From the IMG/VR virus record IMGVR_UViG_3300023176_005768: 64,000 bases of DNA; one strand, given 5' to 3'. Below the pieces are notes generated by a model. That model did no database searches and was not told the origin of the DNA. It saw only the letters and a list, made by a program, of their open reading frames with translations. Origin of the DNA: an uncultured virus (IMG/VR IMGVR_UViG_3300023176_005768). Its lineage: Duplodnaviria > Heunggongvirae > Uroviricota > Caudoviricetes. Shown here piece after piece: positions 2,428 through 47,800 of this stretch. Numbering within the stretch: the first letter of the stretch is position 1; each line of letters begins with the position of its first letter. A program made the position numbers and the translations under genes.

Positions 2428-2501
2428 GCCGGGTGGTCCGGACGGTTTGACGGAGGTACTCTTATAAAGTACTTGAGCAGGTTCAATTCCTGCACCCGGT
2501 A
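2428..2501 (+). tRNA. tRNA-Ile(UAU)
   Basis: Acceptor GCCGGGT/ACCCGGT, D stem TCCG/CGGA, anticodon arm GTACT-CTTATAA-AGTAC, T arm GCAGG-TTCAATT-CCTGC; G at position 8 is atypical. Confidence 0.85.
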
Positions 2502-2510
2502 CGAACAATA

Positions 2511-2583
2511 GCCTCGGTAGCTCAGAGGATAGAGCATCGGACTTCTAATCCGTTGGTCGTAGGTTCGAATCCTACTCGAGGCG
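2511..2583 (+). tRNA. tRNA-Arg(UCU)
   Basis: Cloverleaf: GCCTCGG/TCGAGGC acceptor, TAGCTCAG D arm, loop CTTCTAA, GTTCGAATC T loop. Confidence 0.93.
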
Positions 2584-2584
2584 C

Positions 2585-2683
2585 TGAAAGCGCAGATACC
2601 AAGTTAGTTGGTTGGCTTGGGAAAATTGCAAATATCACATAAGCATGTGTTCAGGTTGTCACTTAGCAGCTTCTGCGCTTTCA
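2585..2683 (+). ncRNA. Unidentified structured RNA candidate inside the tRNA cluster
   Basis: Perfect 12-bp closing stem TGAAAGCGCAGA/TCTGCGCTTTCA plus internal hairpins 2599-2620 and 2636-2649. Confidence 0.5.
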
Positions 2684-2690
2684 ACAATTT

Positions 2691-2762
2691 GCCGGATTAG
2701 CTCAGTGGTAGAGCACTCGCCTTGTAAGCGAGATGTCGTGGGTTCGACCCCCACATCCGGCT
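2691..2762 (+). tRNA. tRNA-Thr(UGU)
   Basis: Cloverleaf: GCCGGAT/ATCCGGC acceptor, CTCGC-CTTGTAA-GCGAG anticodon arm, GGTTCGAC T loop. Confidence 0.93.
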
Positions 2763-2971
2763 CGAATTCGTGTCGCACAGAAGCACTTGCTATTCCTATA
2801 TAATAGCCGCCGCAGAACCATTGTTTCTAAAAGAAGCCGCAAAACAGGTGGCTTTTCGCCTCACTCTCGCGAAAATCGCCCGAGACCTCTTCCTGGAAGA
2901 ATGATTCCGTTCCGCCAGGCTGTTCGCCAAAGCGGAGCGCGTCACATTCCCGAACAAAGGAAGTTACACTT

Positions 2972-8436: not shown

Positions 8437-9468
8437 ATGACTATCACCAACAAGGTTGCCGTTACTGCCGGCTTGGCCGAGCACAAAGAGATCATCGATG
8501 GGCTCGACCCGTCGTTGTGGTCGACGCTGGAGAGCTTCGTGATGCAGAGCATCTTCGGAGATCACCAACTCGCGATGCAAGGTATTGTTGATCCGGCTGG
8601 GCGCGTGAACGCTCGCAAGGCAGCGCTGCCGAGCACTACCAAGGAGTCGGTGATGAAAGAAGTCGACACCCTCGATGGCGAGAAGAGCTTCGATCGTCCC
8701 AACGGCGATAAGTACTTCTCCCGCTCGTGGGGCGATCACAACGACGTCGCGGTTCTGCGCCGTGCTCGTGAGCTCGGGCACTACGCTCTGCTCTACGGTT
8801 CGCCCGGCTGCGGCAAGACTGCGCTCGTCGAGGCCGCGTTCGGCGATGACCTCTACACGCTCCTGGGTTCCGGAGACACCGAGGTCGCTGACCTGGTCGG
8901 CGGCTACGTCCAGACTCCTAGCGGCGCGTTCCTTTGGGAAGATGGGCCGCTGGTCAAGGCCGCCGAGGAGGGCAAGCCGTTCCTCATCGACGAGGTTGGG
9001 CTGATCGACACCAAGGTGATGTCGATCGTCTACGGTCTTATGGATGGGCGCCGCGAGTACACCGTGACTGCCAACCCAGAGCGTGGCACCGTCAAGGCCG
9101 CCGATGGCTTCTACGTTGTCGCAGCGACCAACCCCAACGCGCCCGGCGTGCGTCTCTCCGAGGCGCTTCTCTCCCGGTTCACGCTCCAGGTCGAGATGAC
9201 CACTGACTGGTCTCTCGCTCGCAAGCTCGGTGTGCCGACGCAGGCCGTGACTGCGGCGCAGAACCTCAGCAAGAAGTTCACCGCGAACGAGGTGTCATGG
9301 GCTCCGCAGATGCGCGAGCTCCTGGCGTTCCGAGACATCAACTCGGAGTTCGGCACCAAGTTCGCGATCTCGAACATTCTCGCAGCTGCCCCCGAACTCG
9401 ATCGGCCCGTCGTCGCAGACGTGCTGTCCCGGGTGTACGGCGAGACGTGCATGCCGGCCAAGATCTAA
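8437..9468 (+). CDS. MoxR/CbbQ/CobS-type AAA+ ATPase
   Basis: Walker A GSPGCGKT, DLVGGY, W.DGPL..A, Walker B FLIDE, AATNP, LSEALLSRF. Confidence 0.92.
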   Translation: MTITNKVAVTAGLAEHKEIIDGLDPSLWSTLESFVMQSIFGDHQLAMQGIVDPAGRVNARKAALPSTTKESVMKEVDTLDGEKSFDRPNGDKYFSRSWGDHNDVAVLRRARELGHYALLYGSPGCGKTALVEAAFGDDLYTLLGSGDTEVADLVGGYVQTPSGAFLWEDGPLVKAAEEGKPFLIDEVGLIDTKVMSIVYGLMDGRREYTVTANPERGTVKAADGFYVVAATNPNAPGVRLSEALLSRFTLQVEMTTDWSLARKLGVPTQAVTAAQNLSKKFTANEVSWAPQMRELLAFRDINSEFGTKFAISNILAAAPELDRPVVADVLSRVYGETCMPAKI

Positions 9469-9476
9469 GATCGCCG

Positions 9477-9511
9477 TGGGTCGGGCTAGCGTAGTGGGTA
9501 GCCCGGCCCAC
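9477..9511 (+). terminator. GC-rich hairpin after the AAA gene
   Basis: GTGGGTCGGGCTA...TAGCCCGGCCCAC. Confidence 0.55.
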
Positions 9512-9580
9512 TGGCACTTTCTAAAGACATTATAATAGCCACTACAACGAAGGACAGCACCACAACGAAAGGACATCAAC

Positions 9581-11425
9581 GTGGGCAATCTCAAGAATGC
9601 GGCTCGTCGTGAGCCAGTGTCAGTTACATACCCGGAGTGGCTACGCGTCAGCGGCAGCATCGGAGAGCTCGCTCGTAGCTGGTCGGGCCGCCTCGAGATC
9701 GTGGCGTTCGCCGGCCCGACTGCCGGCCTCGGAAACCCCGCGTGCTTCTCGCCGAACACCAGCGAGCTCGAGATCAACACCGAGACTTGCTTCGGCGCAG
9801 ACGTCAATCCCGAGGACATCGACGATCTGACCAAGATCGGTACTCAAGCCGAGTGGCCTCGCGCGATCGGCGCGATCTTCCACGAGGCAATGCACGCCCG
9901 CTACTCCCTCTGGAGTCTGCCGCGGGCTGCTGAAGATCTTTCTCCTCGCGAGTTCACTGCGCTCCTTCTTCTTGAGGAGGGCCGCATCGAGCGTCATGGC
10001 CTCGACGTCTGGCCGCGCATGTCCGGGTTCCTCCGCCGCATGGCTGTTGACGTTGTCGTCAACAATCCGGAAGAGATTCACGACAGCAGCGACACCGTGT
10101 TCGCGGGCAACGTCGCTCTTCTGACACTCGCCCGTGTCGACGCCGGATCGCTCGAGTGGTCTGACGTTGAGCGCATTCGCGAGCTTCTCGTCGAGCGCTT
10201 CGGCGAAGCCAAGTTGGCAGAGCTCCGCGAGCTCTGGCGCGCAGCGCAGGAGCACTCCCGGCACCACGACGCCACAGACATGTACCCCATCGCGCGCCGC
10301 TGGGTCGAGCTCATCAACGAGATCGCTGTAGAGAATGGCGAGCCTGAGCCTGGAGATTCTGAGCCGGGCGAAGGTTCCGAAGGCGCGCCCGGTGAGTCCG
10401 GCGAGAGCTCGGGCTCGAGCGAGAGCACGAGCGGCACGCCGTCATCTTCATCGTCGTTCGCCGACGAGATGCAGGAAGCGCTCGAGGACGCCGCCGAGGA
10501 GTCGAAGATCGGCTCCTATGATGACATCACCGAAGCCGAGCAGCTCGCCGACTACGAGGAAGAGGCGCAGGCCAGGGCTAGGGACTCGCGTGATCGCCGC
10601 AGCGCAATGGACGCGGCCAGCAAGGTGTTCGGCTCCGGAACGTCAGAGGTGCATGGCACGAAGTCGAACAGCGTGCTTCAAGAGACTCGCCCGGCGTCTT
10701 CCGACGAGCGTCGCGCTGCTGTCAAGGTGGCGCAGCTTCTCGAGAAGGCGAAGTACCGCGATCGCAGCGAGACTGAGATCACGGACGTCGTGCCTCCGGG
10801 ACGACTTCGCAGTCGCGCCGCAGTCCAGGCCGCAGCTCTCAAGAGCAAGGGTGTCATGGCGCAGGTCGAGCCGTGGCGACGCACTGCTCGCAAGCACACT
10901 GACGATCCGACGCTCAACATCGGGATCATGGTCGACATCAGTGGCTCGATGGGTGAGGCCATGGCGCCAATGGCGAGCACCGCGTGGCTGTTGTCAGAGG
11001 CCGCTCGTCGCGTGCAGGCTCGAGCCGCAATGGTCTACTATGGCAACGACGTGTTCGCCACGCTCAAGCCCGGCCAGCACCTCGATCAGGTGCGAGTCTG
11101 GACAGCACGAGACATGACCGAGAAGTTCAATGATGCGTTCAAGGCGCTGAACGGGGCGCTCGATCTGACGCACGGCTCAGGCGCACGGTTGCTCGTGATC
11201 GTTAGCGACGGCGAGTACACTTTCACCGAGACCAATGCGGCCAAGGCGGCGATCGCCGAGTGCGAGCGCACGGGTGTCGGAGTGCTCTGGATCTCGACCG
11301 GCTGGGGCCCTCGCGGCATCACGGCAGGCACGGCGGCTCAGGTCACTCCCCTGAAGACGGACGTAGTCGAGCTTGCCGACTCGATCGGCAGAGCAGCAGC
11401 CGCGGCACTCGCCTCGGCCTGCTAA
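9581..11425 (+). CDS. CobT-like partner: HEXXH metallopeptidase-like domain, acidic linker, VWA domain
   Basis: FHEAMHA...LEEGRIE; MIDAS DISGSM; LVIVSDG; adjacent to the MoxR ATPase. Confidence 0.88.
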   Translation: MGNLKNAARREPVSVTYPEWLRVSGSIGELARSWSGRLEIVAFAGPTAGLGNPACFSPNTSELEINTETCFGADVNPEDIDDLTKIGTQAEWPRAIGAIFHEAMHARYSLWSLPRAAEDLSPREFTALLLLEEGRIERHGLDVWPRMSGFLRRMAVDVVVNNPEEIHDSSDTVFAGNVALLTLARVDAGSLEWSDVERIRELLVERFGEAKLAELRELWRAAQEHSRHHDATDMYPIARRWVELINEIAVENGEPEPGDSEPGEGSEGAPGESGESSGSSESTSGTPSSSSSFADEMQEALEDAAEESKIGSYDDITEAEQLADYEEEAQARARDSRDRRSAMDAASKVFGSGTSEVHGTKSNSVLQETRPASSDERRAAVKVAQLLEKAKYRDRSETEITDVVPPGRLRSRAAVQAAALKSKGVMAQVEPWRRTARKHTDDPTLNIGIMVDISGSMGEAMAPMASTAWLLSEAARRVQARAAMVYYGNDVFATLKPGQHLDQVRVWTARDMTEKFNDAFKALNGALDLTHGSGARLLVIVSDGEYTFTETNAAKAAIAECERTGVGVLWISTGWGPRGITAGTAAQVTPLKTDVVELADSIGRAAAAALASAC

Positions 11426-12301: not shown

Positions 12302-12757
12302 ATGACAATCGCGACTTACAAGTGGCACGACGACAGAGTCCTCGAGATCTCGTCAGACGACTTCGATCTTCGGATCCGCAAGCGCGTCTGGGAGCCCCGC
12401 TACGAGCGCTACTCGAGCTTCGTCAGCGCGCCTCGGATCTACGTGCAGGTCGGAGACTTCAATCTTCTCGAGAACCTGGAGAATCGCCGCCGTCGGCCGT
12501 ACACCGAGTTCCGCAAGTACATCGAGCGGGTGGTGTGGCCGACCCTCGGCTGGCAGGAGACTGCTCCGAAGCTCGGATGGCGCCAGAACGCAGGGTGCAG
12601 CATGTGCCCCTGCTCGCCTGGATTCGTCGTCCAAGTCGAGGGCTGGCGACCAGTCGAGTCGATCGGCGCGCGCTTCGATATGTGGCTCGACATCAAGACG
12701 CCCGACTTCGTCAGCGTCGACGAGCGCAAGCCCGCGATGGTGCCGGTTCTCATCTGA
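12302..12757 (+). CDS. Hypothetical protein, paralog of 20548..21105
   Basis: Shared ENLENR.RRP.T and W.Q..GC.MCPCSPGF motifs. Confidence 0.8.
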   Translation: MTIATYKWHDDRVLEISSDDFDLRIRKRVWEPRYERYSSFVSAPRIYVQVGDFNLLENLENRRRRPYTEFRKYIERVVWPTLGWQETAPKLGWRQNAGCSMCPCSPGFVVQVEGWRPVESIGARFDMWLDIKTPDFVSVDERKPAMVPVLI

Positions 12758-14341: not shown

Positions 14342-14863
14342 ATGGGAATGGACGTTTACGGGCACAGCCCGAAGACTGAAGAGGGCGAGTACTTCCGGGC
14401 GAACGTCTGGGGATGGCGTCCGATCTGGGACTACTGCGTGCAGATGCACCCGCACCTGGTCGGCGATGAGCCAGAGTACGGCCACTACAACGACGGCTAC
14501 GGCCTCGATGAGGAGGGCGCTACGCGGCTTGGTGAGGCGATCGAGCAAGATCTTCGAGACGGGCGTGCACACGCCTACATCGAGTCTCGGAACAAGTACC
14601 TCGCGAAGCTTGAGCGCCCTGAGTGCGACTGGTGCGATAAGACGGGAATCCGCACGGACAAGGTCGGCGTGGACATGGGCATGCCCGAGAAAGCTCTCGA
14701 CGCGGTGACGGCTATCATGGTTGGGCGTACGCACGGATGGTGCAACGGCTGCAACGGCGAGGGACGTCAGGATCACCCGGAAACTCTCTACTCTCTCGAG
14801 ATCGGTGACCTCGACGAGTTCGCGGTGTTTCTGATCAACAGTGGAGGCTTCGGCATCCACTGA
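14342..14863 (+). CDS. Hypothetical protein with CxxC...CxxC insert, paralog of 25151..25669
   Basis: Shared YG..P...GE.F..NVW.W..(I/L)W.YC, GWCN.C.GEGR and EFA.FL..SGGF.I. Confidence 0.8.
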   Translation: MGMDVYGHSPKTEEGEYFRANVWGWRPIWDYCVQMHPHLVGDEPEYGHYNDGYGLDEEGATRLGEAIEQDLRDGRAHAYIESRNKYLAKLERPECDWCDKTGIRTDKVGVDMGMPEKALDAVTAIMVGRTHGWCNGCNGEGRQDHPETLYSLEIGDLDEFAVFLINSGGFGIH

Positions 14864-19651: not shown

Positions 19652-19861
19652 ATGACGACAGACACCGACAGCATCTATGTGAAGACGCCCGCGTGCCGAG
19701 TGTGCGGCCGCTCAGACTTTCTTGCGGTCCGCGAGAGCGATCTCGAGCGCTACAACGCCGGCGCACTGGCTCAGGAGGCGTTTCCTGAGATGCCGATCGA
19801 GCGCCGAGAGCAACTCATCTCTGGGACGCATCCGGAGTGCTGGAAGAAGTTGTTCGGATGA
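19652..19861 (+). CDS. Zinc-binding microprotein
   Basis: TPACRVCG...QEAFP....RE.LISGTHPECW..LF. Confidence 0.75.
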   Translation: MTTDTDSIYVKTPACRVCGRSDFLAVRESDLERYNAGALAQEAFPEMPIERREQLISGTHPECWKKLFG

Positions 19862-20005
19862 GCGTAAGGGCCGCCGGCCGGTATCCCAGTCTCAAGATGT
19901 TCATTACTCCAGACTGGAGAGCGGCTCTCCCTCCCGTGGAGACGTAGGGTAGCGTCCGCGGGAGGGTGAACCGGCCATACGATCTAAAGAAGTTACAATA
20001 TACGT

Positions 20006-20248
20006 ATGCAGCAGGACCACCTGATCTACACGACAACGACGCGGTATGCGGTAGTCGATGGCGCTCTCTACCAAGAGCACTCTCGCGGACTCAAGCCGCT
20101 TCTCTTCGAGGTCACTGAAGAGATCATGATGCCCGATGACAGCGTGATCATGCGCGGCGAGAGCTTTCACGTCGCCGGCGCCGAGCGCACTGTCGATCTC
20201 GGTGTCGTAACTCATCGACTCTTTGGAGTTCGCCGGCACGTTTGGTGA
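20006..20248 (+). CDS. Leaderless hypothetical protein
   Basis: ATG 6 nt after TACAAT. Confidence 0.65.
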   Translation: MQQDHLIYTTTTRYAVVDGALYQEHSRGLKPLLFEVTEEIMMPDDSVIMRGESFHVAGAERTVDLGVVTHRLFGVRRHVW

Positions 20249-20275
20249 GATTCTAAAGAAGTTATAATGATCTCA

Positions 20276-20512
20276 TAACAACCCACCGGGTTAGCAACCC
20301 GCTAAATGTTGAAGCCGAAAGGTGGAGTCTAGCGGAGACCCGGTGGGCATAAAGTTTAAGACGTCGCGGAGAAAAGCGACGCGAGGCGAGTACCGTGGGC
20401 AACGCTGTAAAGCTCTAAGGAGAGACAGACGTCGGCGATGCCGAATAATGGCGGTTGATCGTGAGATTGCTAGATCACACGGTCTAGGGCTAGCACCCTA
20501 ACCCACGGGAAA
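20276..20512 (+). ncRNA. Structured non-coding RNA candidate (or structured 5' leader of 20548)
   Basis: Directly after the motif at 20251; no + strand ORF of 60 aa or more; nested stems 20282-20291/20338-20347, 20299-20304/20330-20335, 20362-20367/20376-20381, 20393-20399/20502-20508, 20485-20500. Confidence 0.65.
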
Positions 20513-20547
20513 GACGCACAAGCAGAAACAAAGACAAAGGACAAAAG

Positions 20548-21105
20548 ATGACGACAAAGTACGCAACACGCAAGACGAGCTGGGACGGAGAAGAGGACGC
20601 CTACAACAAGTGGGAGTGGCGACAGGTCGAGTGCGCCGGCGGTCTGATGTACGTAACTGACGACTTTCGCTTCTTCGCGAATGGCTACCTCGGGCAGCGT
20701 TGGGGCGAAGTAGCGCCGAATCAGTCGAAGCTGTACATCACCTTCGGAGACGACTTCGACGTAGTGGAGAATCTCGAGAACCGCACGCGGCGCCCTCACA
20801 CGCTGTATCGTAAGTTCTTGAACGACAAGGTCTTCCCGACTCTCGGCGTCGAGGCTCCGAAGCTCTCCTGGAGCCAGAAATGCGGATGCACGATGTGCCC
20901 GTGCTCTCCAGGCTTCATCATCAACGGCAACTGGGTTTCTGAGGTTCTCGTGCCGGCAGCAACTGGGCTCAAGGCGGCAAACACCAATGCTCGCGTTGAG
21001 GAGGGCTTCTTTCCTCGTCGCGCGGACATTTCCGTGCGGATTCTCAACGCGGACTTCGAGAACTATGACAGCAGCAAGCCTGCTCGAACTGTCGTCGCTC
21101 TCTGA
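20548..21105 (+). CDS. Hypothetical protein, paralog of 12302..12757
   Basis: ENLENRTRRPHT, WSQKCGCTMCPCSPGF; AAAGGAC RBS. Confidence 0.8.
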   Translation: MTTKYATRKTSWDGEEDAYNKWEWRQVECAGGLMYVTDDFRFFANGYLGQRWGEVAPNQSKLYITFGDDFDVVENLENRTRRPHTLYRKFLNDKVFPTLGVEAPKLSWSQKCGCTMCPCSPGFIINGNWVSEVLVPAATGLKAANTNARVEEGFFPRRADISVRILNADFENYDSSKPARTVVAL

Positions 21106-21140
21106 GCAGCAAAACTTCTAAAGAAGTTATAATAGTACGC

Positions 21141-21380
21141 ATGGACACACTGACAAAGACAATGACATGGATCATGGCGCTCCTCTTCTCAGCAATGGGA
21201 GCCTACGGGGTCTGGGCGGTCATCGAAGAGACCAATCGCAGACACGAGGTGGAGCCGATCGGCTTTCACGGAATGGTGTTCGCGGTTGCGCTGATTGTCG
21301 CGATTCTCGCGGTCACGGTGATCGTCGTCTCCGGCGTCATCGACGAGATGCGGAATCTCAGTCACGACGAGTACGAGTGA
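21141..21380 (+). CDS. Leaderless two-TM membrane protein
   Basis: ATG 7 nt after TATAAT; two hydrophobic helices. Confidence 0.7.
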   Translation: MDTLTKTMTWIMALLFSAMGAYGVWAVIEETNRRHEVEPIGFHGMVFAVALIVAILAVTVIVVSGVIDEMRNLSHDEYE

Positions 21381-21389
21381 CCAAACTCT

Positions 21390-21461
21390 ACGAACGAGCC
21401 AATGGATAGGCACTCGGTCTCCAAAACCGAGCAAAACGGGGTTCGACTCCTCGCGTTCGTG
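21390..21461 (+). tRNA. tRNA-Trp(CCA), slightly non-canonical
   Basis: ACGAACG/CGTTCGT acceptor, GCC/GGC D stem, TCGGT-CTCCAAA-ACCGA, CGGGG-TTCGACT-CCTCG; short acceptor-to-D linker. Confidence 0.75.
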
Positions 21462-21490
21462 CTAGAACTAAAGAAGTTATAATAGTCTAC

Positions 21491-25150: not shown

Positions 25151-25669
25151 ATGACGATGCACATTTACGGATGTGAACCCGACTCGCCGGCTGGCGAGAA
25201 GTTCTACAGAAACGTCTGGGCGTGGCACTCTCTTTGGACGTACTGCGAAGATCGTCACGAGGACTTGGCGCATCGCGTTCATCGTCCGTACGCCTCGGAT
25301 GGCGATGGGCTTGACGAAAACGAGGCAACAGATCTCGGTTGGCGACTGTTCTTCGATCTTGTTCACGGAATCGCTGAAGAATACGTCGACTCGAGAAACG
25401 CGATCGTGTACGCGCTACCAAACAACGAATGTCACATTTGCGGCGGCTCTGGTGTTCGCTCAGACCAGGTCGGAGAAGATCTGTCGATGCCGTGGCGCGC
25501 TCTTGACGTCGATCAGGCAATCAAACTCGGCAGAGCCCGCGGCTGGTGTAACTACTGCCGCGGAGAGGGTAGAGTTCTCGAGTTCGAACGCAGCCACCGG
25601 CTAAGCACTGTCGACATCGCGGAGTTCGCAGACTTCTTAGTTCATTCCGGCGGGTTTGAAATCTACTAA
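25151..25669 (+). CDS. Hypothetical protein, paralog of 14342..14863
   Basis: Shared motifs throughout its length; AAGGA RBS. Confidence 0.8.
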   Translation: MTMHIYGCEPDSPAGEKFYRNVWAWHSLWTYCEDRHEDLAHRVHRPYASDGDGLDENEATDLGWRLFFDLVHGIAEEYVDSRNAIVYALPNNECHICGGSGVRSDQVGEDLSMPWRALDVDQAIKLGRARGWCNYCRGEGRVLEFERSHRLSTVDIAEFADFLVHSGGFEIY

Positions 25670-26257: not shown

Positions 26258-26390
26258 TGTCTTTCTAAAGACATTATAATATCTTCATGAACAAAAACGC
26301 CGATGATGTTGGCTGGTGGTTTGCGCTTAGTTGCTTGGCAGCGGGGGTGGCCACTCTACTGACGAGCATCTTCATTCTTCACTGACGCGA

Positions 26391-26918
26391 ATGACAACGA
26401 CAAACGTAGCTTCAACTCTCGAAAAAGAGTACCGATCGTTCAAGAAGATGATCGCGTCGTACGCGACAAAGAAGGGGTCGAGCGACCCAGACGAGATCGT
26501 CTCGATGACTTTCTCTAAGCTGCTTGCTCGAGACTCAGTCTACGGCGGGACCAGCGGTCTTCGATCGCTTGCTCTCGTGATCGCGCACGCGGCAGTCATG
26601 GACGAGCATCGCAGAAATTCCGCGAGAAAGACTGAGCCCTGCGACCCAGAAAACTTTTCCTTCGCGTTCAACGGCAAACTGTCTTGCGAAGACGTCTACG
26701 CATTCGAGAATGACGACTACCGAGCAAACGTAGAAGCTCTCAGGAAAGCTTTCGAAGTGCTTGACGACAGATCGCGTGAAATCGTCTCGTTGCGGTACGC
26801 TTGGGAGCTTTCGTCAAAGGAGATCTCAGCAAAGCTGCAAATGAGTGACGCAGCCGTTCGAGTAGCTCTTCACAGAGCAACAAAGCGCCTCCGCGACGAG
26901 ATAGTTCTTGTCGCGTAA
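26391..26918 (+). CDS. ECF-type sigma-70 family sigma factor
   Basis: Region 2-like D.DEIV...F.KL...L..IAH....DEHRR; region 4 LDDRSREIVSLRY..ELS.KEIS.KL.MS..AVRVALHRA.KRLR. Confidence 0.85.
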   Translation: MTTTNVASTLEKEYRSFKKMIASYATKKGSSDPDEIVSMTFSKLLARDSVYGGTSGLRSLALVIAHAAVMDEHRRNSARKTEPCDPENFSFAFNGKLSCEDVYAFENDDYRANVEALRKAFEVLDDRSREIVSLRYAWELSSKEISAKLQMSDAAVRVALHRATKRLRDEIVLVA

Positions 26919-26954: not shown

Positions 26955-27284
26955 ATGGACGCAGAAGAAGTATTGAAAGCAATTGAGAGCGGCCGGCTTG
27001 ACGGAGATCTTTTCAACATTGACAACGCGGTCGCCGAGAGACGAGAAAAGATTCGCGTGACCGCGAAAGTCGACGACTATCTGATCGGAGACCGCGTACG
27101 CGTGAACACTAAGGCGTCGCCGGCGTATATTCACGGCGAGCTCGGGACAATTGTCGGCAAAGCGCGAACAAAGCTTCTCATGCGATTTGACAGGCCGGTC
27201 GGAAGGTTTTCGTCAGTCGATGAGAACGGAATCTCGCATGGCGTCGAGGTGAAGGTGCCGCTGTCGATCATTGACAAGGTATAG
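26955..27284 (+). CDS. Hypothetical protein with SH3/KOW-like C-terminus
   Basis: IGDRVRV...P.Y..G..GTIV. Confidence 0.6.
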   Translation: MDAEEVLKAIESGRLDGDLFNIDNAVAERREKIRVTAKVDDYLIGDRVRVNTKASPAYIHGELGTIVGKARTKLLMRFDRPVGRFSSVDENGISHGVEVKVPLSIIDKV

Positions 27285-27291
27285 TACCGAT

Positions 27292-27882
27292 GTGACGACA
27301 ATTCTCGCGGTTCAAGGCGACACCTGGTCAGTTGTTGGCTGCGATTCGCTCGTGTCCGACGACAACGGCAGAGCATACAGCCTCGCGCCTGGTGTCTCGA
27401 AGATGACCGAAAAGTCAGGCTATGTCATGGCGACTGCCGGCGATCTTCGTGCGATCAACATCGTTTGTCACGCTTTTGATCCGCCAAAGCCGCCGAAAGT
27501 CTTTGGCGCAGACTTGGATTCGTTTTTCACGTCGAAGTTCATACCTGCCCTCCGCGAGTGCTTTGAGTCCCACGGATACGCGACAAAGAGCGACAAAGAG
27601 CAAGCAGCTCACGGGTCGTCGCTCATCATCTCAGTTCGCGGCGTGATCTACGCGGTAGACGAAGACTACGCTTGGACTCGAGACAGATATGGGTTCTATA
27701 GCGCCGGCAGCGGCGGAGACTATGCGATCGGCGCGATGAACGCTCTATGCGACTACAATCCGAACTTTCTCTCAGACGTGCTCGCGGTAGAGTATGTTCA
27801 GAGAGCTATTGAAATAGCAACAAAACTTGACACAGGTTCAAGGCTACCATCACAGGTAATCTCTCAGACCATAGCACCCTAG
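27292..27882 (+). CDS. Proteasome beta/HslV-like Ntn-hydrolase
   Basis: GTG start gives N-terminal TTILAV (catalytic Thr1), GCDS, K at about position 33, AGD, SAGSGGDYAIGA, D..S; GTG lies 6 nt after TATAGT. Confidence 0.85.
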   Translation: MTTILAVQGDTWSVVGCDSLVSDDNGRAYSLAPGVSKMTEKSGYVMATAGDLRAINIVCHAFDPPKPPKVFGADLDSFFTSKFIPALRECFESHGYATKSDKEQAAHGSSLIISVRGVIYAVDEDYAWTRDRYGFYSAGSGGDYAIGAMNALCDYNPNFLSDVLAVEYVQRAIEIATKLDTGSRLPSQVISQTIAP

Positions 27883-27890
27883 GAGACACA

Positions 27891-28157
27891 GTGACGCCGT
27901 CATGGATGAAAAACGCACCCTGCTCGGGAAAATCAGAGCTATTTTTCAACGAAACGTCGAGAAAGACAGTAGAAAGAGCCAGAAAGATCTGCCAGTCGTG
28001 TAGTGCAAGAGAAAAGTGCTACGAGCACGCGATGAAACACACGGACCTTGGCGTCTGGGCCGGACTTACAACGAACCAGCGCGAAAAAATCAAGCGGCAG
28101 ATCAGAAAAACCCTGAGAAATGACAGAAAGTCAACTCAGAAGCAAGAGTCTATGTAA
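27891..28157 (+). CDS. whiB: WhiB-family Fe-S transcription factor
   Basis: W...A.C...LFF...A..IC..C..RE.C...A......GVWAG.T..QR. Confidence 0.92.
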   Translation: MTPSWMKNAPCSGKSELFFNETSRKTVERARKICQSCSAREKCYEHAMKHTDLGVWAGLTTNQREKIKRQIRKTLRNDRKSTQKQESM

Positions 28158-38204: not shown

Positions 38205-38872
38205 TGGCAAAGAGTAGCAGTGTTCCGGCGAAGCCGAGTGAGAGAATCAAGGGCTCAAAGAAAAATAAGCCTGGTTCAGCAAAGGCAAAGAACGCTAAGA
38301 AAATAAAGTTTTCAGACAAGACTGAAAAAGCTCTTCGCAACAAGATGCAGGAGCACAATAAGAAGGCGTCTGCTGGCCGTAAGGCGACGATGGGGCAGCT
38401 CAAGGCGGTGTACCGCCGCGGTGCAGGCGCGTTTTCAACATCTCATCGCCCAGGCAAGACACGAGATCAATGGGCGATGGCAAGAGTGAACGCGTATCTA
38501 AAGCTTCTTCGCTCCGGTAAGCCGTCAAACCCAAACTACACCCAAGATAACGATCTTCTTCCGGCGACGCATCCGAGGTCGTCAAAGAAAGACGCTTCGG
38601 CGATTACCGCAGGTACACGCCCGGTGTATGAAGAGTTGTTTGTTGAAATTCTCGATGAGAGCGAGTATGCATCTCCAGAGGAAGCAATTGTTGCGATGGC
38701 CGAGTACTCGGGCTTCGGCTACGAGTTCATTCCATCCGTTCGAGCCGCGTGGAAGCGCGCGCTCGCTAATGACGAAAACCCGTTTGACCGTGCTAAGGAT
38801 TTAGTGACACTTCTAGGATACAGCAGAGATCGAGATCTATTACCACGTTACACAGGCGAGGCAACGTCGTGA
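38201..38872 (+). CDS. Head-module protein, DUF5824-like basic domain
   Basis: L.AVYRRG.GAF..SHRPG....QWA.ARVN.YL. Confidence 0.65.
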   Translation: MMAKSSSVPAKPSERIKGSKKNKPGSAKAKNAKKIKFSDKTEKALRNKMQEHNKKASAGRKATMGQLKAVYRRGAGAFSTSHRPGKTRDQWAMARVNAYLKLLRSGKPSNPNYTQDNDLLPATHPRSSKKDASAITAGTRPVYEELFVEILDESEYASPEEAIVAMAEYSGFGYEFIPSVRAAWKRALANDENPFDRAKDLVTLLGYSRDRDLLPRYTGEATS

Positions 38873-41800
38873 AAACAAGAAACAGAAGTGTTGCAAAGAG
38901 TAAGTTCATTCATCAGTACGGAATAAAGATCCGTACCGACGTTCTTGCGCTTGTTGCTGATGCGAACAGCCGCGTTCTTCCGGAGCGCAGAGTTGCTGTT
39001 GCTGCTGCGATTGCTGTAGCGAACCGTTCACTGGCGCGAACAGTGACGCACGACCCTCGAGTAAGAGTGTTCAACGCTCTTCGCGAGGTGTCACAGTTTA
39101 TCTCACTCTGCACTTCTAATACACAAACTTCTCAGTCGATGCGTCACTGCGATTTGCTTCCAGTGTCGCATCCGGCGTCGACAAAGAGTCATAAGATGAA
39201 CAGCGCGTCGCTTCGTCACGCGAATGCTCGTTGGCTTGCGGCTGACCCGTTCATTGATGACAGCTATCGCGCGCTTGTTTCAGCCGCGTACTCGGCGTTC
39301 CCCGGCTCGTCAGAGAGAGTTCACGCGTTCACCCGTCTGTCTGTCGCGCCGTCAGGTGCTGTGCCAACTTACCTGCGCCTCGACGACGCTATTGCTCCGG
39401 AGCCTCTTAGCATTGTTGCTGTTGGTGGCTTCGGCATCGGTGGCAACTCAAGAGCTGCTCGCTCGCTTCGCGCGAGAATGCAGCGACGCGATCGTTACGG
39501 TCGATTCGCCTTCATGGGCGGCGGCTTTAGCTTCAACTTAGATCTTGATGGCAGCATTTTCTCAGTCTCCGGACGTGTTGTTGGAGCGTCTGGCGACGAT
39601 GACATCGAGATCGAGATCACTGACAGCCCAAGTCTTCCAGGCGGCATCTACGCGCTCCCTTCGTCAAAGGGCGTGTCTTCGAAGGCGATTATCTCGAGAG
39701 AAGCGCTTAAGGAGATCCCGGAGGTAGAGCTCGACAGAGTTACCGGCGGCCGCGAGTCGCTCGTTCGAGAAGGAGAAATCAGTCGTCTCGACGCTCCCAC
39801 GGGGTGGTCGAGAGCAGATAGCGGTGACGCCGGCTTTGAGCAGTTCGTATCTGATGACGGCTACTTCGTTCGAAAGAATCTTGAGACCGGAGACTACAGT
39901 CTCCATCGTGCTGATCTCACAGACAACTCCATTGGCGAAAAGGTCGCTGACGGCAAGTCGTGGGCTGACGTGCAGCGCGCCGCGAAAGATGACTCGCCGG
40001 CATATGAGAAGGTTCTACAGGAGGCTGCTGACGCAGAGGGTGCCACTGAATTCCCGACCCGAGACTCTCAAATTGCAGACGTTATAGATCGAGCTCTCAA
40101 ATCTGACTACATAAGAGAGGATGTCCTCGAACGAGAGGAAATCGAGAATGATATTGCGACAATTGTCAGTGAGCCAAACGGCTCTGGCCTAATCACCGAT
40201 ATAGATGACGACGGCATCGACATCCTGTACACGCACGACAGGGACGGGAACAAACTTGATTCTCCAGAAACTCGGACAGTTGCCTGGGGAGACGTCACTG
40301 AGGACTTCCAAGAAGTTTCATTCAGACCCGAGGAGCAAGAAGATTTCTATGGTGAACTCGAGAGGATTGTAGAGGGTGCCCGCGAGGTAGACGCTGCTGA
40401 GGCGCGTTTCCCTAGCGGAGAAAAAATGTTTGACGACTCCCGCGAGGCGTACGAGGCGTGGAAGAATCAAATTGGCGCAGGCCCACGAGACATGACTTAC
40501 GAGGAATGGCGTAAGTGGATAAACAGTCGTGCTGATGAGCCAGGTGTATTTCCAAAAGACGTGTTTCCAGATGGCTACCCGATTAGCCCGATGGACACCT
40601 CAAGAATTGTCGAAGAGAGAAGAAAAGAAGAAGAGCGCGAAAAGAAAGAAGCAGAGCGCGCAGAGAGAGATGCTCGAAAAGCTATAGAAAAGTTCCTTGA
40701 GGAGGAGAGACGTGATCTCTTCCCCCCAGTGAAGCCAGTGAAGCCTCGGCCAAAGCGCGACGACAAGAAGGCTAAAGAGCTCGAGCAGATGACAGACGAA
40801 GAGCTCATGGCGGAGCTCGCAAAACATGGCAAGAGAGCGGAGAGACCGTTTGACAGAGGCTATTCACTGTTTGCGGATAAGTCTGAGTACTCTGCTAGTT
40901 CCATTATCGCGGAGTTACAGTCCCGCGGCTACGAAGTTGCTAAGAGTGGGCCAAGAAAGCCCAAGTACTATGGGGACTACGCTGCTGGCGATGAGGGCTA
41001 CACGGTCTACAGGCCTGGTCAGGCTGGCATGTTCTTCCCCGAGCTTGACTCCGGCAAACCTGCTGCTGAAACTCCAAGCAGGGACTCTCAAATCACAGAC
41101 GTCATGGACCGCGTCATCGACTACGACAAGTCAAAAGGCGACGAAACAGGCAGACCTGGCACCACTCTCAAGAAAGTAGATCGCCAACCTTCCGAAAAAG
41201 ACGAACTCGAGAGAGGAATTGCGACAATTGTCCAGGGCCCGAACGGTTACGGCGTAGTAACTGAGTCTGACGAAGACGGCTTTGACGTAACGTACACTCA
41301 CGACGAGAACGGAGTAAGACTTTCTTCTCCAGATACTCAAAGAGTGTCCTGGGAAGACGTTGCCGACTTCGACAAAATCTCGTTCTACTACGGTGACGAC
41401 GATACAGAAGATTTCTACGGCGAACTTGAGGACATTGTAGAAGGCAAGACCCCAGAAGGCCAGGTTCCCGTATCCTCGAGTGAGTACCGAGAGGGCTCAA
41501 TAAGCGCAGAGTACGAAGGCGAGCTCGCTGAGGTATTTCTTGAGGAGCCAAGCCCTGGCAACTACATTGTCACTGCCATTGTTCGCGCGCCAGAGGACGC
41601 TGAAGAAGACGTCGAGGTCGCGTTCAGAGCAGACTCAAGCGATCCGTCAGTTACTGACTTTGACGCTGAGATCAGAGATAACTTCGGCCAAGAGGTTCTT
41701 GACTTCTTCAAGCCAACCGATGACGACATCACGCCTCCGACCGAAGGTGACGGCAGCGATCCGCTTAGCCCAATGAACACTAAGCCTAAGGGCGATGGCG

Positions 41801-44800
41801 TTCAAATTGCGTTCCCAATGGTTGAAGAGGACTTCACCGAAGATCTCGTTAAGCGTGTTAATGACGCCGGCGGGTACATCGAAGAGAATGACAGTCTGTA
41901 CGACAGTCTTGACGGGTCTCCTCTTGGAATGGGCGATGAACGCAAGGTTGTTGTTACGTTTGATAAGCCTAGGCTGACTCCAGAGGAGGCTCGCAGCTTC
42001 CTTGGCGACGCTGAGACTGACGGTGCACTTAACGCACGTTTCAGCAACGATGACGAGGAGAACGCCGAGCTTTTCCAGAAACTAACCGAAGGTGACGGCG
42101 ACCCAGACATCTTTGACGGGGTTACTCCAGACATAGACCCAGAGCTATACACTGGCGGGCCCGCTGATATTACAGATACGAGCTTCTTCGGCATTAGATC
42201 TGCAATAGAAGACGCGATGGAGGCCGGCGGAACAGTTCGGTTCATGTACAGCGGCAAGGAGAGAACGTTTACTCCAAGTCGCATTTACAGTAACCCGAAG
42301 AACGGGCTAACTAACGTCGTCGGGTTCTTAGACGTCGATGGCGAGATGGAAGAGAGAACGTTCTCTATTGACAAAATCTCGCCGATGCCAAGCGAGTCTA
42401 AGACTCCGTCTGGGATTTCTCCAGAATTCGAGAGCGAGTTTGACTCGATGTTCGAGGTCCCAGATGGCGCGCACAAGGTTGACATCTACTCGATGTACGA
42501 GCCCCGTGGTCGCACCGATGAGACAAGCGAAGACTACACAGACGATCCTTCTGAGCTTTCGACAAGATTTTCGCAGGAAGAGCTTGCCAAGGCTCTGCGC
42601 GAAGCTGTCATGCCTAGCGAGAGTGGGGACCGTGCTGAAGGTCTCGGCAATCTTGAGTTCTCAGACGGAGATGAAACTGTGCCTGCTGAGGCGCTCTATG
42701 AAGCGCTTCAAATGTCAGGTGTCGATGCCGACATAATTCTTGCGGGCATCTACGACTCGGCGTTTGATGACCCTAACCGTGTCAGCAACGTCGAAAGACT
42801 ACAAGAGTTTAAAGGCGACATGTTTGATTCGCCTGAGTACAGCCCGGCACGCTCCGAAATACCTCAGACGCAAGGCGAGGCCGACAGAGTCACGGCGCAG
42901 AAAGCTCAGCGAACTGGGCAGAGCTTAGACAACGAGCGAGCGCAACGCGCTGTTGAGCTTATGCGCTCTCACGAAGAAACAAATCCAAAGATCAAAGAAA
43001 TCGCGGATCAAATTATCTTCGGCCGCAGCGACGATCCGGTTTTGTCGTTTGATGAAGCGTTTGAAAGATTCTACCCACTATCGAAGTCCGACGACCCAGC
43101 AGATCGCGAAGCGTTCAGAGCGTTCTGGGGTATCGTCATGTCTATTGACGGTGGAGACGGCGGAGATCTCGCTGAACCAGACGTAATCTCCCCCGAAGAC
43201 TCAAGAATGCGAATGCTCGGTGCTATCAGCAATATTCTTGAGAGAGACGGAGTAGACGGTGACATTGCATCAATAGCAGAAGACGCGTACTACGAGATGA
43301 TCGAAGAGTACGGCCAGTACGCCGACTACATCAATGGTAAGAAAGCAATTTCGTCTGGCTCTGACGATCTGTCGGCGGACACTACCGCTGCCGCGTTCTA
43401 CAGAATTGTTTCTTCCGCCGCGTCACCGAATAATCGGCCACTCTATAGAGTCCTTAACATTCACAAAGATAATCCGGAGATCGAGACTCTTCTGACTGAG
43501 GGTTCGACGTTTTCTATGGATGCTCGCCCATTCACTGCGCAGGAGATTGCCGATGGCTCTCTAATGAGTCGTCTGTTCTTCCCCACCGGCGTGAATGAGC
43601 GTAGAATTGTTCTTGAGGTGCCACCAGGCGAGATTGACAGCCTTAACGTGTCAGACATGTCGTTTGTCCCAGACGAGCAGGAATGGATCGGCTTCGGAGA
43701 GCTACAGGTAGTGTCTGTCCGCGAGCAGAGTAATGAGTTTGGTGTTGAGACTATTGTTCAAGTTCGTAGAGCCGATGCGGCGGCGCCTGAAGCGCCGTCT
43801 GCTGCTACAGCGTACGATCCAGACGCCGACGACATTGAAACATGGTCTCGCACTGGCGGCCAGGCGGGATCGAACCCGGGTGGGTTCTATGAGACTCCCG
43901 ATGGCAGAAGATACTACGTCAAGTCGCCGAGATCGCAGTCTCACGCGGAGAACGAAGTTCTTGCATCCGCATTCTACGAGATGCTCGGAGTGCCGGCAGC
44001 ACGTGTTCGCCTCGGTCGTGAAGATGGCGACACAAGAATCGTCTCTACATTAATTGAAGACGCCGACACCGGTGACTTTGAGTTTAGGGTCGACGGTGGA
44101 GACACTGAGTATCTCGACAAGGTCCGTCAAGGATTTGTTGCTGACGCCTGGCTAGCAAACTGGGACAGCGTTGGGCTGGTCTATGACAACATCGTCACAG
44201 ACGGCAATGGAGACCCGGTGCGTCTCGACCCAGGCGGCTCGTTGATGTATCGTGCTCGTGGCGCTGAGAAAGGCTCGGCGTTTGGCAACAACGTAACAGA
44301 GCTCGACACTCTTCGCGACCCAGATCTAAATCCGCAGGCGGCGTCAGTCTTTGGCGATATCGATGATGCAACATTGCAGGCTGCCGCGAAGAGACTTCGT
44401 GACATCACTCCGTCGCAGATTGACGAAACAGTAGATTCAATTGTCTCGGATCCAGATGATGCCGCTCTTCTTAAGGAGCGCTTGAAGGCTCGTCGCCAGT
44501 CGATTCTTGATCGCTTCGGGATTCAAGAAGGCCAAGACGATCCCGATCTTTTCCCAGATCCAGAGCCGCTCACTGACGCGATGGGCTACCAGGCGCAGGA
44601 CCTAGTGCCAGGCGACATTACCGCGACTGATTCATTTGTCGTCGAAAAAGTTTTCCGCGATTCCGAAACTCCAAAAGGCAAGGTAAGTATTCAAGGATAC
44701 TACCCTGGCCACGAGTCTCAGCGCAAGGAGTGGAACGAAGACACTGAGATTGAAGTTAGCCGCGGCGGTACGACACCTCCAAAGGGCGATAAGCCCGCGC

Positions 44801-47800
44801 TTCATCGACCAAAGAGACCGTACTCGCCTAGAAGTCAAGAGACGTTCAGTGGCGACATGCGAGATCTTCTTGAGGGCGCAGAGAGCTGGGAAGAAGTCGC
44901 GGAGATCATTCGCGGAACTGAGATCGTCTACTTTGACTATGAGACAACTGGCATTGGAGACGGCGAACTCAACCGTCCTGTGCAGATCGGTGCTGTTCGA
45001 ATTGTCAACGGCGAGGTCGTCGATAGATTCAACATGTACATGAATCCAGAGTTTAGACTCTCGGATTGGTCAAAAGAGAATCTAAAGCGCGAGGACGGGG
45101 AGCTTGTCACCGACGAGTGGCTAGAGACTCAGCCATCAATGCGCGAGGCGCACGAGCGATTCATCGAGTTTGTTGGAGATCGTCCGATTCTTGGCGGACA
45201 GAACGTTCCGTTTGATACTGAAGTACTACAGCGTACTCTAGGCGAGCAGGGCCTCGAACTCGAGATTGGTGGAACTATTGATTCTCTGCCAATGGCAAGA
45301 GGGACTCTGCCAACGTGGTCGTCTGGCTCTCCAGACGGTCCTTCGCAGGTAGGCCGCGACGGCAAGAGGCGTTCGTCGAACAGCCTCGGCCCTGTCGCTG
45401 AGTACCTCGGTGTAGAGCTCGGCAACTGGCACCGCGCTGACGCTGATGCCGAAGCCGCCTGGGACATTACTGACGCGATGCTAACCCGCGCATCGGCGCC
45501 TGATGCTGACGTTTCTACAGAGTCGTTCGATGGCCGTGAGGCTGAAAAGATCGCCCAAGACCGCGCAGAGTACGACGCTGCAATGTCGGTGTACAAGGAC
45601 GAGCTCGCTGACTACGAAGCCGCTAAGGCCGTAGCGGCCGCGTGGAACTGCGGCGGCGCCGGCATCACAGCGGCAGTCGGTGATGGAGAAGGCCCGTGCG
45701 ACGTGCCAGACCCAGACGACATGATCAACAATGCGACTCCAGACGAGTCGATTGTAGACCCCGAAGGCGTACCTGGCGGCGCAACAGACAGCAACGTCTC
45801 AATGGCAGATGCTCTTGATGACGGAGTTGTTGAGCGTCCTGAGAAAGATGGCGTAAACGTCAAGGATCCCTACGCTGACGAGAAGTTCCCACCGACGGCT
45901 CAACAGCGCGATGTTGTTGACGCCGTGCTTACTGGTGAAAATGTTGTTGTTCGTGCTCTTGCCGGGACTGGTAAGACGAGCACTCTTAAGCTTATTGCAA
46001 GGCGCTTGAAGAAAGAGCAGCCTAAGAAGAGAATAGCGTACGTCGCGTTCAACAAGTCAATTCAGCTCGAGGCTGATGCGACAATGCCAGGCAACGTTGA
46101 GTCACGTACTGGCGACTCAATCGCGTGGAGAGCAATTGGCTCGAGTCTCACAGACAAGCGTAAGAAAAACCGCTTCAACAACAAGCCAAGTAAACTTGCC
46201 AATGACCTCGGAATAACTGGGCAGCCAAGCCCAGACGAGCCAGACAAGGACATGACGGCTACTCAGGTGTATCGCGCGATCAATAAGGCGGTCACAAACT
46301 ATACGATTAGCGCCGATGATGAGATTGGCCCTCAGCACTTCGAGTTTGACAACGTCCCAGACGAATGGATTGCTAAGGCCGGAGAAATTTGGGACGATCT
46401 TAAGAGCCCGAGTGGCGTTCTTCCGTTCAACAACAACCACGCGACGAAGATCTGGGCGTTGTCTCGCCCTGATCTATCTGCCGACGGCTCCGGACTTGAC
46501 TACAAAGCCGATGTCATCTTCTTTGACGAAGCACAGGACATCAACCCTGTAATCGGAAAGGTCATTGCAGATCAGACCGCGCAGGTTGTGTACGTTGGAG
46601 ACGGTAATCAAGCGATCTACGGTTTCCGCGGTGCTGAAGACGAGCTACAAAAAATCAGTGCTCCGAATGATCTGCCATTAACAAAGTCTTGGAGATTCGG
46701 CCCGCAGATAGCCGGAATCGGTAACAGGTTCTTAGCAGCTCTTGGTTCGGACTACAGAATCGAAGGCGGCGGCCCAGACGGCAAGATCCTCCCGAGAGGG
46801 GGCATGCCCGATGCTGACGCGGTTCTTGTTCGCTCAAACGCCGGCGCAGTTCGAGAAATCTACAGAGAGCTCGAGGCTGGAAGAAAAGTCGGTGTAACTA
46901 AGTCGTTTAAAGAAGACCTAGAGAGATTTGTTCGCCACGCTGATTGGTTGAAGTCTGGGGCAAGACTAGACGATCGACCGCAGATGCACGAAGATCTTGC
47001 GCCGTTCTCGTCGTGGGATGAAGTTGTCAAGTCTCTCGAAGACGAAGACAATAAGAAGCTGGAATTTCTTGTCGATCTTGTAGACAGCGAAGGCGTCGAC
47101 GGACTGTACGACATGCTAGGTCGTCTAATCCCGTACACTACTAACGCTGACGTGTCATCTGACGAGCTTCCGAGCGCGCCGCCGCTTATGCCATCAGAAG
47201 TTGCGAGCGGTTCGTCTGGCGAAGTTGCTAATGGCGTTATGTTCGAGGTTTCTGGAGACAGAGTAAAACTCTCCGGAAAAACATTTGACACTAAAGAGTC
47301 GATCAAGGCTCTCGGATTTAAGTGGAACGCCGCTGACAAGAGCTGGGTGCGCTCAATCAAGGGCGACGACAACCGCGCGCGGACATTGAATGAGCTTCGC
47401 TCGAAGCTTGCTGGCGACGGATCAGCGGACAGACCTGACGTCGTAGTTAGCACGGCGCACAGAGCTAAAGGTCTCGAGTGGGATCGTGTTCGTATTGGCG
47501 ATGACTTCAGAGGACCAAGAGTCGACGGCGAAACTGGCGCAACAATTATGCCAGCGGATGAAGAGCTGCGTCTTGCGTACGTTGCTGTTACACGCGCGCA
47601 GAAACAACTTGATCCAGGCTCTCTTGAGTACATCTACGGATATACAACTGAAGCAGACGAGTCGCCCAATCTGCCTAGCGCTCCTGAGGCTGATGTCCCA
47701 GAAGCTCCAGAAGCTCCAGAAGCTCCGCCAGTACCCGTGGAGATCGACCCAGAGCGTCGCGCCGCTGAAGTAGCGAAGTACAATCTTGAAGATCTCGGTG

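Follow-up and report, generated by a model that had tools for sequence, protein, structure and literature searches.

The segment from 20275 to 20518 on the plus strand of the window, as we call the whole 64,000-nt stretch of DNA analyzed, is a real, apparently selected, structured, and uncatalogued RNA with which an early message of an actinophage would begin. The family is new, although its broad kind is known, and we infer its function: our best reading, held tentatively, is that the RNA is transcribed together with a downstream gene and would act in trans, by binding a protein, as an effector of host takeover.

An Early Promoter Array in an Actinobacterial Phage

The window comes from an uncultured actinobacterial phage related to DSL-LC01. 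It encodes a WhiB protein and a large terminase, the latter with at least 80 relatives at 72–100% identity among the matches listed, and both its promoter motif and its gene set resemble those of Actinomycetia phage DSL-LC01, assigned to the proposed family "Nanparkviridae" in the excerpted text of PMC10611076. An AAA ATPase and VWA-like pair (8437–11425, +), a proteasome/HslV-like protein (27271–27882, +), and WhiB (27891–28157, +) follow the order found in DSL-LC01, the gene of an ECF-like sigma region 4 protein (26331–26918, +) excepted. An ORF of 5188 aa (38869–54435, +) lies downstream of a portal-like gene.

The early promoter motif CTAAAGAAGTTATAAT is present in 36 copies between 6928 and 26280 (at most two mismatches; chance expectation 0), and every copy heads one short early cassette. 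Arrays of sister phages contain the motif as well. The promoter that the sequence-only reading had noticed before the RNA is confirmed as one of these 36 copies. Since an ATG stands 6–7 nt past the −10 hexamer in 14 of the 36 cassettes, suggesting leaderless starts, the transcription start of the RNA can be placed tentatively by the same spacing. With start codons curated by hand, the distance from hexamer to start codon is 6–47 nt in 35 of the 36 cassettes, and 279 nt in the one headed by the promoter at 20253. Small leader hairpins open several other cassettes.

The window also carries tRNA genes for Ile(TAT), Arg(TCT), and Thr(TGT) at 2428–2763 (+). A tRNA-Trp(CCA) with a short D-arm (21390–21462, +), found by ARAGORN and below the Rfam gathering search, is located within the early array after ORF 21141, not directly behind a promoter. 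Two pairs of early genes are paralogous: 12302–12757 and 20548–21105, with 38% identity, and 14342–14863 and 25151–25669, recognized by eye.

Fold of the 244-nt RNA

The features of the RNA and of its surroundings are given in table 1. The region 20270–20520 folds at −95.1 kcal/mol (z −4.59), and none of 200 shuffles was equally stable, a result favorable to the structured noncoding phage RNA proposed by the sequence-only reading. Among the 36 post-promoter 245-mers (20 shuffles each), the RNA has the lowest z (−4.14), the next being −3.07. Folded separately, the 5′ domain, P3, and the 3′ domain reach z values of −4.28, −3.37, and −3.54, respectively. Because the minus strand of the element folds as stably as the plus strand (z −5.07), folding energy does not fix the strand; the assignment relies instead on the promoter together with the motifs of the RNA. 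The P5/P6 region is the least certain part of the fold, with pair probabilities of 0.44–0.87, and the 3′ end of the element reaches about 20518 by GCG/CGC pairing.

Table 1. Features of the structured RNA and of its early cassette
Feature	Coordinates	Strand	Basis or remark
Phage early promoter motif CTAAAGAAGTTATAAT, −10 hexamer TATAAT at 20263–20268	20253..20268	+	One of the 36 copies of the motif
Inferred transcription start (20275) and unpaired 5′ end	20275..20281	+	Leaderless ATGs of 14/36 cassettes
Domain 1: P1 (20282–92/20337–47) and P2 (20299–304/20330–35), capped by the k-turn hairpin	20282..20347	+	Pair probabilities 0.97
K-turn: bulge 20308–10, G20311.A20326, A20312.G20325, A20313.G20324, G20314.U20323, GAAA tetraloop	20306..20328	+	Best fold
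P3 hairpin, purine-rich loop	20362..20381	+	Pair probability 0.89; unchanged in L444
Domain 3: loop-E motif (AGUA 20389–92/GAA 20509–11) on P4 (20393–99/20502–08)	20386..20517	+	Fold
Multibranch loop closed by P4: P5 (20402–32), P6 (20433–43), P7 (20457–84), P8 (20485–500)		+	
P7 loop, candidate loop–loop contact	20467..20473	+	Could pair with 20291–20297 (7 bp including one G-U) or with the P8 loop 20490–20495 (6 bp)
Unstructured A/C-rich linker with AAGGAC ribosome-binding site (20537–42)	20518..20547	+	Unpaired probability 0.92
185-aa early protein (ORF 20548), conserved Cys cluster	20548..21105	+	Same transcription unit as the RNA (predicted)

Every stem listed in the sequence-only reading exists in the sequence, with some qualifications as to the fold. 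The stems of the GGGTT/AACCC alternative are present, but adopting them costs about 8 kcal/mol relative to the best fold, and TGATC/GATCA, also present, is 2 kcal/mol worse than GAUCGUG/CACGGUC. The sister strain described below no longer has the 4-bp register of CTCT/AGAG but keeps CUC/GAG. The longest plus-strand ORF in the element is a 59-codon GTG frame (20322–20501). A 6-codon AUG frame at 20438 is preceded by a Shine–Dalgarno-like sequence 15 nt upstream.

K-Turn, Loop-E Motif, and Candidate Loop–Loop Contact

Three features go beyond those listed in the sequence-only reading: a k-turn, a loop-E motif, and a candidate loop–loop pairing. In the best fold, the internal loop of the k-turn is 6×3 (GUUGAA/GGA) and comprises a 3-nt bulge and, next to it, tandem G:A and A:G pairs, all placed between the C and NC helices as in a standard k-turn; we took this definition and the 3b:3n and 4b:4n rules from excerpts of PMC8191799, where the signature is given in Table 1. 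By sequence, the 3b:3n A:G and 4b:4n G:U pairs are those for which these rules predict ion-induced folding, and the −1b:−1n pair, U:G, lies outside the rules taken from that source. In Domain 3, AGUA stands opposite GAA next to helix P4, as in loop-E/sarcin-ricin motifs, with 3 extra bases on the far side of the loop. AGUA/GAA belongs to the sarcin-ricin/loop-E sequence set in the excerpted text of PMC1865062. In tests chosen after the sequence had been seen, a k-turn-type loop arose in 3 of 600 dinucleotide shuffles and the loop-E arrangement in 4 of 600, the two together in none. The 18-mer of the k-turn is also contained in an archaeal RNase P RNA (L284) and therefore represents a natural module and not kinship.

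The loop of P7 is a candidate for a loop–loop contact that would probably lock the domains together in the modeled structure. Complementarity of at least 7 bp was found in 17 of 600 shuffles, and of at least 6 bp in 155 of 600; the pairing partners are invariant in the available strains. The P7-loop complementarities would explain why TAGCA appears twice in hairpins, as the sequence-only reading had remarked. In an intergenic region of a gammaproteobacterial genome (L279 483–527, +), the k-turn hairpin of the window RNA recurs within a longer helix, without Rfam match, and is possibly another orphan RNA.

Conservation of the Structure in a Sister Strain

A pattern combining promoter and k-turn retrieved at least 118 loci from metagenome contigs, so that further strains exist beyond those compared here. 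Adding 48 loci from another pattern, 166 loci were checked. The RNA was present in three of them, two of which are identical copies; the third, L444, is a variant with 97.2% identity to the window over 676 nt. The structure model had been fixed before L444 was found. Within the 244-nt RNA, L444 differs by four substitutions and one 2-nt deletion, and the neighboring ORF 20006 shows 10 substitutions over 243 nt. Two of the substitutions, G20301A and C20333U, affect partners in P2 and constitute a compensatory change from G-C to A-U; the other two substitutions affect bases that the model leaves unpaired. Inside a GA run, the deletion can be read as the loss of a bulge, and it frameshifts the 59-codon internal ORF, in line with the earlier observation that the segment holds no convincing ORF.

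No pair of the model is broken in L444: over 65 pairs, 130 of 130 cells are paired, the 3-bp CUC/GAG stem being excluded from the count because gap placement is ambiguous there. Four random substitutions gave a compensatory pair without a broken pair in 0.35–0.70% of trials. The covariation to which the sequence-only reading had looked for support is thus favorable but consists of one pair in one strain, a single event in two rows, and at two rows a shuffle control is uninformative (239/500). Upon refolding L444, the P5/P6 region is rearranged. From these sequence comparisons, the shape of the RNA appears to be kept by purifying selection, as judged from one compensatory pair in one strain. 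ORF 20548 is still downstream of the RNA in L444. At the positions of L444 matching 20243–20246, the stop codon of ORF 20006 is lost, and its frame continues across the promoter of the RNA.

Comparison with Known RNA Classes

Rfam searches at gathering score over the whole window detected no family at the RNA, and those over 20150–20650 at E ≤ 10 gave nothing beyond two snoRNA fragments matched by chance (E 4.8 and 9.1). The models of small self-cleaving ribozymes gave no match at E ≤ 10; the idea of a ribozyme raised by the sequence-only reading therefore finds no known model that fits the RNA. Group I introns were considered with RF00028, which is known to miss divergent members and has no match on the RNA, and no core could be drawn by eye. 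A group II intron or derivative was rejected, as the Domain V and D1–D4 models match neither in the window (gathering score) nor in 20150–20650 (E ≤ 10). We also rejected a retron, DRT, or OMEGA RNA: no reverse transcriptase or RNA-guided nuclease is encoded near the RNA among 81 proteins (23 + 58) of the 64-kb window scanned with Pfam. T-box riboswitches (RF00230) use a k-turn and an AGUA/GAA S-turn and, like the window RNA, are located 5′ of a gene. The RF00230 model is negative, the order of the motifs differs, and the downstream gene belongs to no recognized amino-acid-related family; forcing the T-box antiterminator or antisequestrator fold costs 12 kcal/mol, no terminator is present, and the ribosome site is open.

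Closer likenesses exist to k-turn motifs. According to the excerpts of PMC8191799, drum, HOLDH, RAGATH-18, and Actinomyces-1 are, like the window RNA, intergenic and structured with a standard k-turn, and the first three carry a 3b:3n A:G plus 4b:4n G:U signature identical to its own. The window RNA differs from the motifs described there by its −1b:−1n U:G pair, its greater length (244 nt), and a separate loop-E multibranch domain. A Pfam scan of early proteins revealed neither TnpB nor any other family of nucleases. Membership in drum or RAGATH-18 was rejected, the models RF02958 and RF03064 having no match to the RNA. Ms1 (RF02566), an RNA of Actinobacteria that binds the RNA polymerase core (excerpt of PMC9130861), shares with the window RNA the actinobacterial context and a similar size, and its binding of a protein in trans is the mode that we propose here. 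Ms1 itself was rejected: the RF02566 model is negative, a four-sequence Ms1 profile gave no match, pairwise comparisons gave p values of 0.025–0.87, and the branching differs.

In actinobacteriophages WC1, D29, L5, and Kampy, highly transcribed early noncoding regions whose function is given as unknown, as for the window RNA, are reported in the excerpted text of PMC10986025, which calls the RNA of the right end toxic and perhaps essential. These phages belong to other families, and no sequence match to the RNA was found in the annotated phage collection. The descriptions available in that source mention no comparable fold, and the window RNA differs by leading into a protein gene.

Distribution and Contigs of RNA Runs

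Among annotated phages, blastn returned the promoter match and short chance matches only, and among plasmids no match to the RNA. Five RNA patterns run over IMG/VR revealed no distant homolog. Three gave the identical copy only; with another, two of three loci were other than the RNA, both judged chance by model and reading; with the last, 47 of 48 loci were other than the RNA and none matched the model. The RNA was not found by blastn in 46 + 5 related phage records. Model R1, built on the single sequence, detected no homolog in these 51 records or in 100 loci (1.46 Mb); over 20 loci (331 kb) its best E value was 0.44, unfiltered over 40 kb of sister phage G047 its best score was 11 bits, and over 151 Actinomycetota genomes it found one 15-bit hairpin, judged chance. 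A k-turn plus loop-E descriptor applied to 5.3 Mb of partly redundant phage loci recovered the window RNA only. The exact 18-mer occurs at 24 loci of a genome collection, about the chance number, with no extension beyond the k-turn arm. As R1 is an insensitive single-sequence model and many records are fragments, these searches do not establish absence elsewhere. The element is so far confined to one lineage, and it may be young or rarely retained. We found no description of the RNA in the literature; a large IMG/VR RNA survey (PMC10690425), which could list it, contains no match in three of its six text supplements.

Nine sequencing runs contain a 1.3-kb query centered on the RNA, or part of it. 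Four RNA runs chosen by this query were examined as contigs, which carry no strand, level, or ends. Run X1 covers the whole 6 kb as DNA would, with one contig extending from 19673 to 21190. In run X2, the sole contig within the 6 kb spans 20236–20494 and begins upstream of the promoter; run X3 has a contig at 20105–20397, among six. Run X4 contains strain variants nearby and no contig over the RNA, a gap that carries no weight. The contigs are compatible with transcription of the element without demonstrating it.

Relationship to ORF 20548 and Proposed Role

Because no terminator was found between the RNA and ORF 20548 and the next promoter is located only at 21118, the RNA is physically a 279-nt leader of this gene. 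The sequence-only reading, according to which it occupied a cassette slot, has to be revised: the RNA and ORF 20548 belong to one cassette. The protein (cluster of 21 members) has 656 relatives at E ≤ 0.001 and no Pfam or PHROG family match; its invariant residues include C114, C117, and C119 as well as Arg. Its structure model (pLDDT 74.6) gave no Foldseek match at E ≤ 0.001, a best VIA Z of 2.3, and no Atlas match; these model comparisons provide no functional clue in either direction. The AAGGAC motif also precedes other cassette genes. At ORF 20548, the ribosome site is unpaired with a probability of 0.92 in the presence of the structure and 0.93 in its absence, and 3.8% of sampled folds pair at least four of its six bases. 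We compared ten distinct loci homologous to ORF 20548: DSL-LC01, the G047 group, the window paralog at 12302, and further distinct phages, six of them with short leaders. Nine of the ten loci have short ordinary leaders and the remaining one is ambiguous; the short-leader homologs are all partial-length, and the full-length subfamily (P0002, P0003) is not among them. Because the ribosome site stays open and nine of ten homologous loci are short-leadered, control of the switch type is unsupported, and the regulatory leader suggested by the sequence-only reading gains no evidence of a switch. The decoy or anti-defence RNA also named in that reading stays hypothetical.

The mechanism that we tentatively favor is as follows. 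Host RNA polymerase would fire at the early promoter at 20253, and in the first 244 nt of the transcript a k-turn helix and a multibranch domain capped by the loop-E motif are predicted, with covariation supporting one helix. Loop–loop pairing would probably lock both domains. The transcript would run on into ORF 20548, predicted to be translated from its own open ribosome site, and cleavage or decay in the A/C-rich linker would likely leave the folded part as a stable RNA. Acting in trans, this RNA would use its shape to capture and sequester a host RNA-binding protein during takeover; candidate partners include a nuclease, a defence effector, and a factor of translation or transcription that recognizes k-turn or loop-E motifs resembling those of rRNA. 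The RNA would be accessory cargo in an early array of swappable items, as would the neighboring tRNA and small proteins. No antisense target was found: perfect complements to the RNA elsewhere in the window reach at most 12 nt, in three cases.

Several observations point to such a trans effector: the apparent purifying selection, with its compensatory pair and fully paired cells; the joint occurrence of k-turn and loop-E motif, seen in no shuffle; the lack of any sign of control in cis, as regards ribosome site, terminator, and homologous leaders; a leader far longer than those of the other 35 cassettes; the coverage by contigs of RNA libraries; and the occurrence, in a sister phage, of a stable 276-nt ORF-less RNA between two promoters (see below). 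Abundant early noncoding RNAs are also known from actinophages, as excerpted from PMC10986025. Against it stand the one pair in one strain that makes up the covariation, the lack of a distant homolog in our searches, and the position of the RNA as a 5′ leader, for which a role in cis is the default expectation. The RNA could indeed serve ORF 20548 in cis, by stabilizing its messenger against host 5′-end-dependent decay or as a riboswitch-like or protein-sensing element. The shared transcription unit without terminator, the small hairpins leading several other cassettes, the maintenance of the RNA before ORF 20548 in L444, and the architectural role of k-turns in riboswitches (excerpt of PMC4316175) would fit this possibility. 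We nevertheless consider it rather unlikely, given a ribosome site that is open with or without the structure, the absence of a terminator/antiterminator pair, the missing long leader at nine of ten homologous loci, and a size and set of tertiary motifs that would far exceed the needs of stabilization.

The size of the RNA, its multibranch core, its loop-E motif, and the possible loop–loop pairing are of ribozyme grade, and a new self-cleaving or catalytic RNA might process the early polycistronic transcript and free a new 5′ end for ORF 20548; since the upstream promoters are read through without recognizable terminators, such processing would be useful. This is improbable, as Rfam offers no model of a ribozyme or intron that fits the RNA at E ≤ 10, the group I model is negative, and a self-cleaver right behind its own promoter would have little to remove. 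More doubtful still is a relic now drifting without function, either a fragment recently acquired from an RNA of a cell or mobile element or an inverted repeat that matters at the level of DNA. Its absence from every sister phage searched and the equally stable minus strand are what such a relic would predict. However, the compensatory change separates strains that are 97% identical and therefore arose within the phage lineage; the start of the element coincides exactly with the inferred transcription start; the G.A, G.U, and GNRA features specific to RNA are on the transcribed strand; and neither 151 Actinomycetota genomes nor the exact pattern over the genome collection provided a donor. The least probable of these alternatives is that the RNA forms a protein–RNA pair with the product of ORF 20548, an arrangement that we take to be type III toxin–antitoxin-like or AbiF-like. 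The order promoter, structured RNA, protein gene and the invariant Arg and Cys residues are reminiscent of it, but the protein family does without the RNA at nine of ten loci, including the window paralog, the RNA contains no repeat units, and no terminator precedes the gene.

A bolder extension of the trans-effector reading, which we regard as unlikely, is that the early arrays of this actinophage family carry swappable RNA effectors and that the window RNA founds a new class of phage RNA with a tertiary fold. Its k-turn arm would dock on the loop-E domain via the 7-bp contact, and the outcome would be a core for catalysis or ligand binding, or else a mimic of rRNA neutralizing a host defence nuclease that targets the ribosome. 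The early noncoding RNAs of actinophages are abundant and their function is open, and the element is a concrete, compact candidate among them: its promoter is defined, its fold can be tested, and nature has supplied a compensatory variant. It would constitute a new RNA class if it proved to be catalytic or a defence decoy, and would be of modest value if only a leader.

Other Structured Elements in the Window and in Sister Phages

In sister phage G047 (L257 17324–17598, −), we identified a 276-nt ORF-less unit between two early promoters, identical in G048 and G049. It folds at −132 kcal/mol (z −5.73), has no Rfam match, and is unrelated in sequence to the window RNA; RNA cargo in an early array is hence not unique. 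That a second, unrelated RNA occupies a like slot points to an exchange of RNAs in such arrays, similar to that of small takeover proteins. The unit is C-rich and contains three CCCUCC/CCUCCUC motifs resembling anti-Shine–Dalgarno loops. Speculatively, the phage's own genes, which use AAGGAC sites, might escape such an RNA. Two more promoter units of G047 that lack an ORF are short (58 and 87 nt) and lie at about 21232 and 20156 (−).

A second structured intergenic element, closed by GGCCGG/CCGGCC, is located in the window at 19862–19983 (+), with a z of −3.87 and none of 200 shuffles as stable. It has no homolog among the loci compared, and may be a terminator, a processing site, or another RNA.
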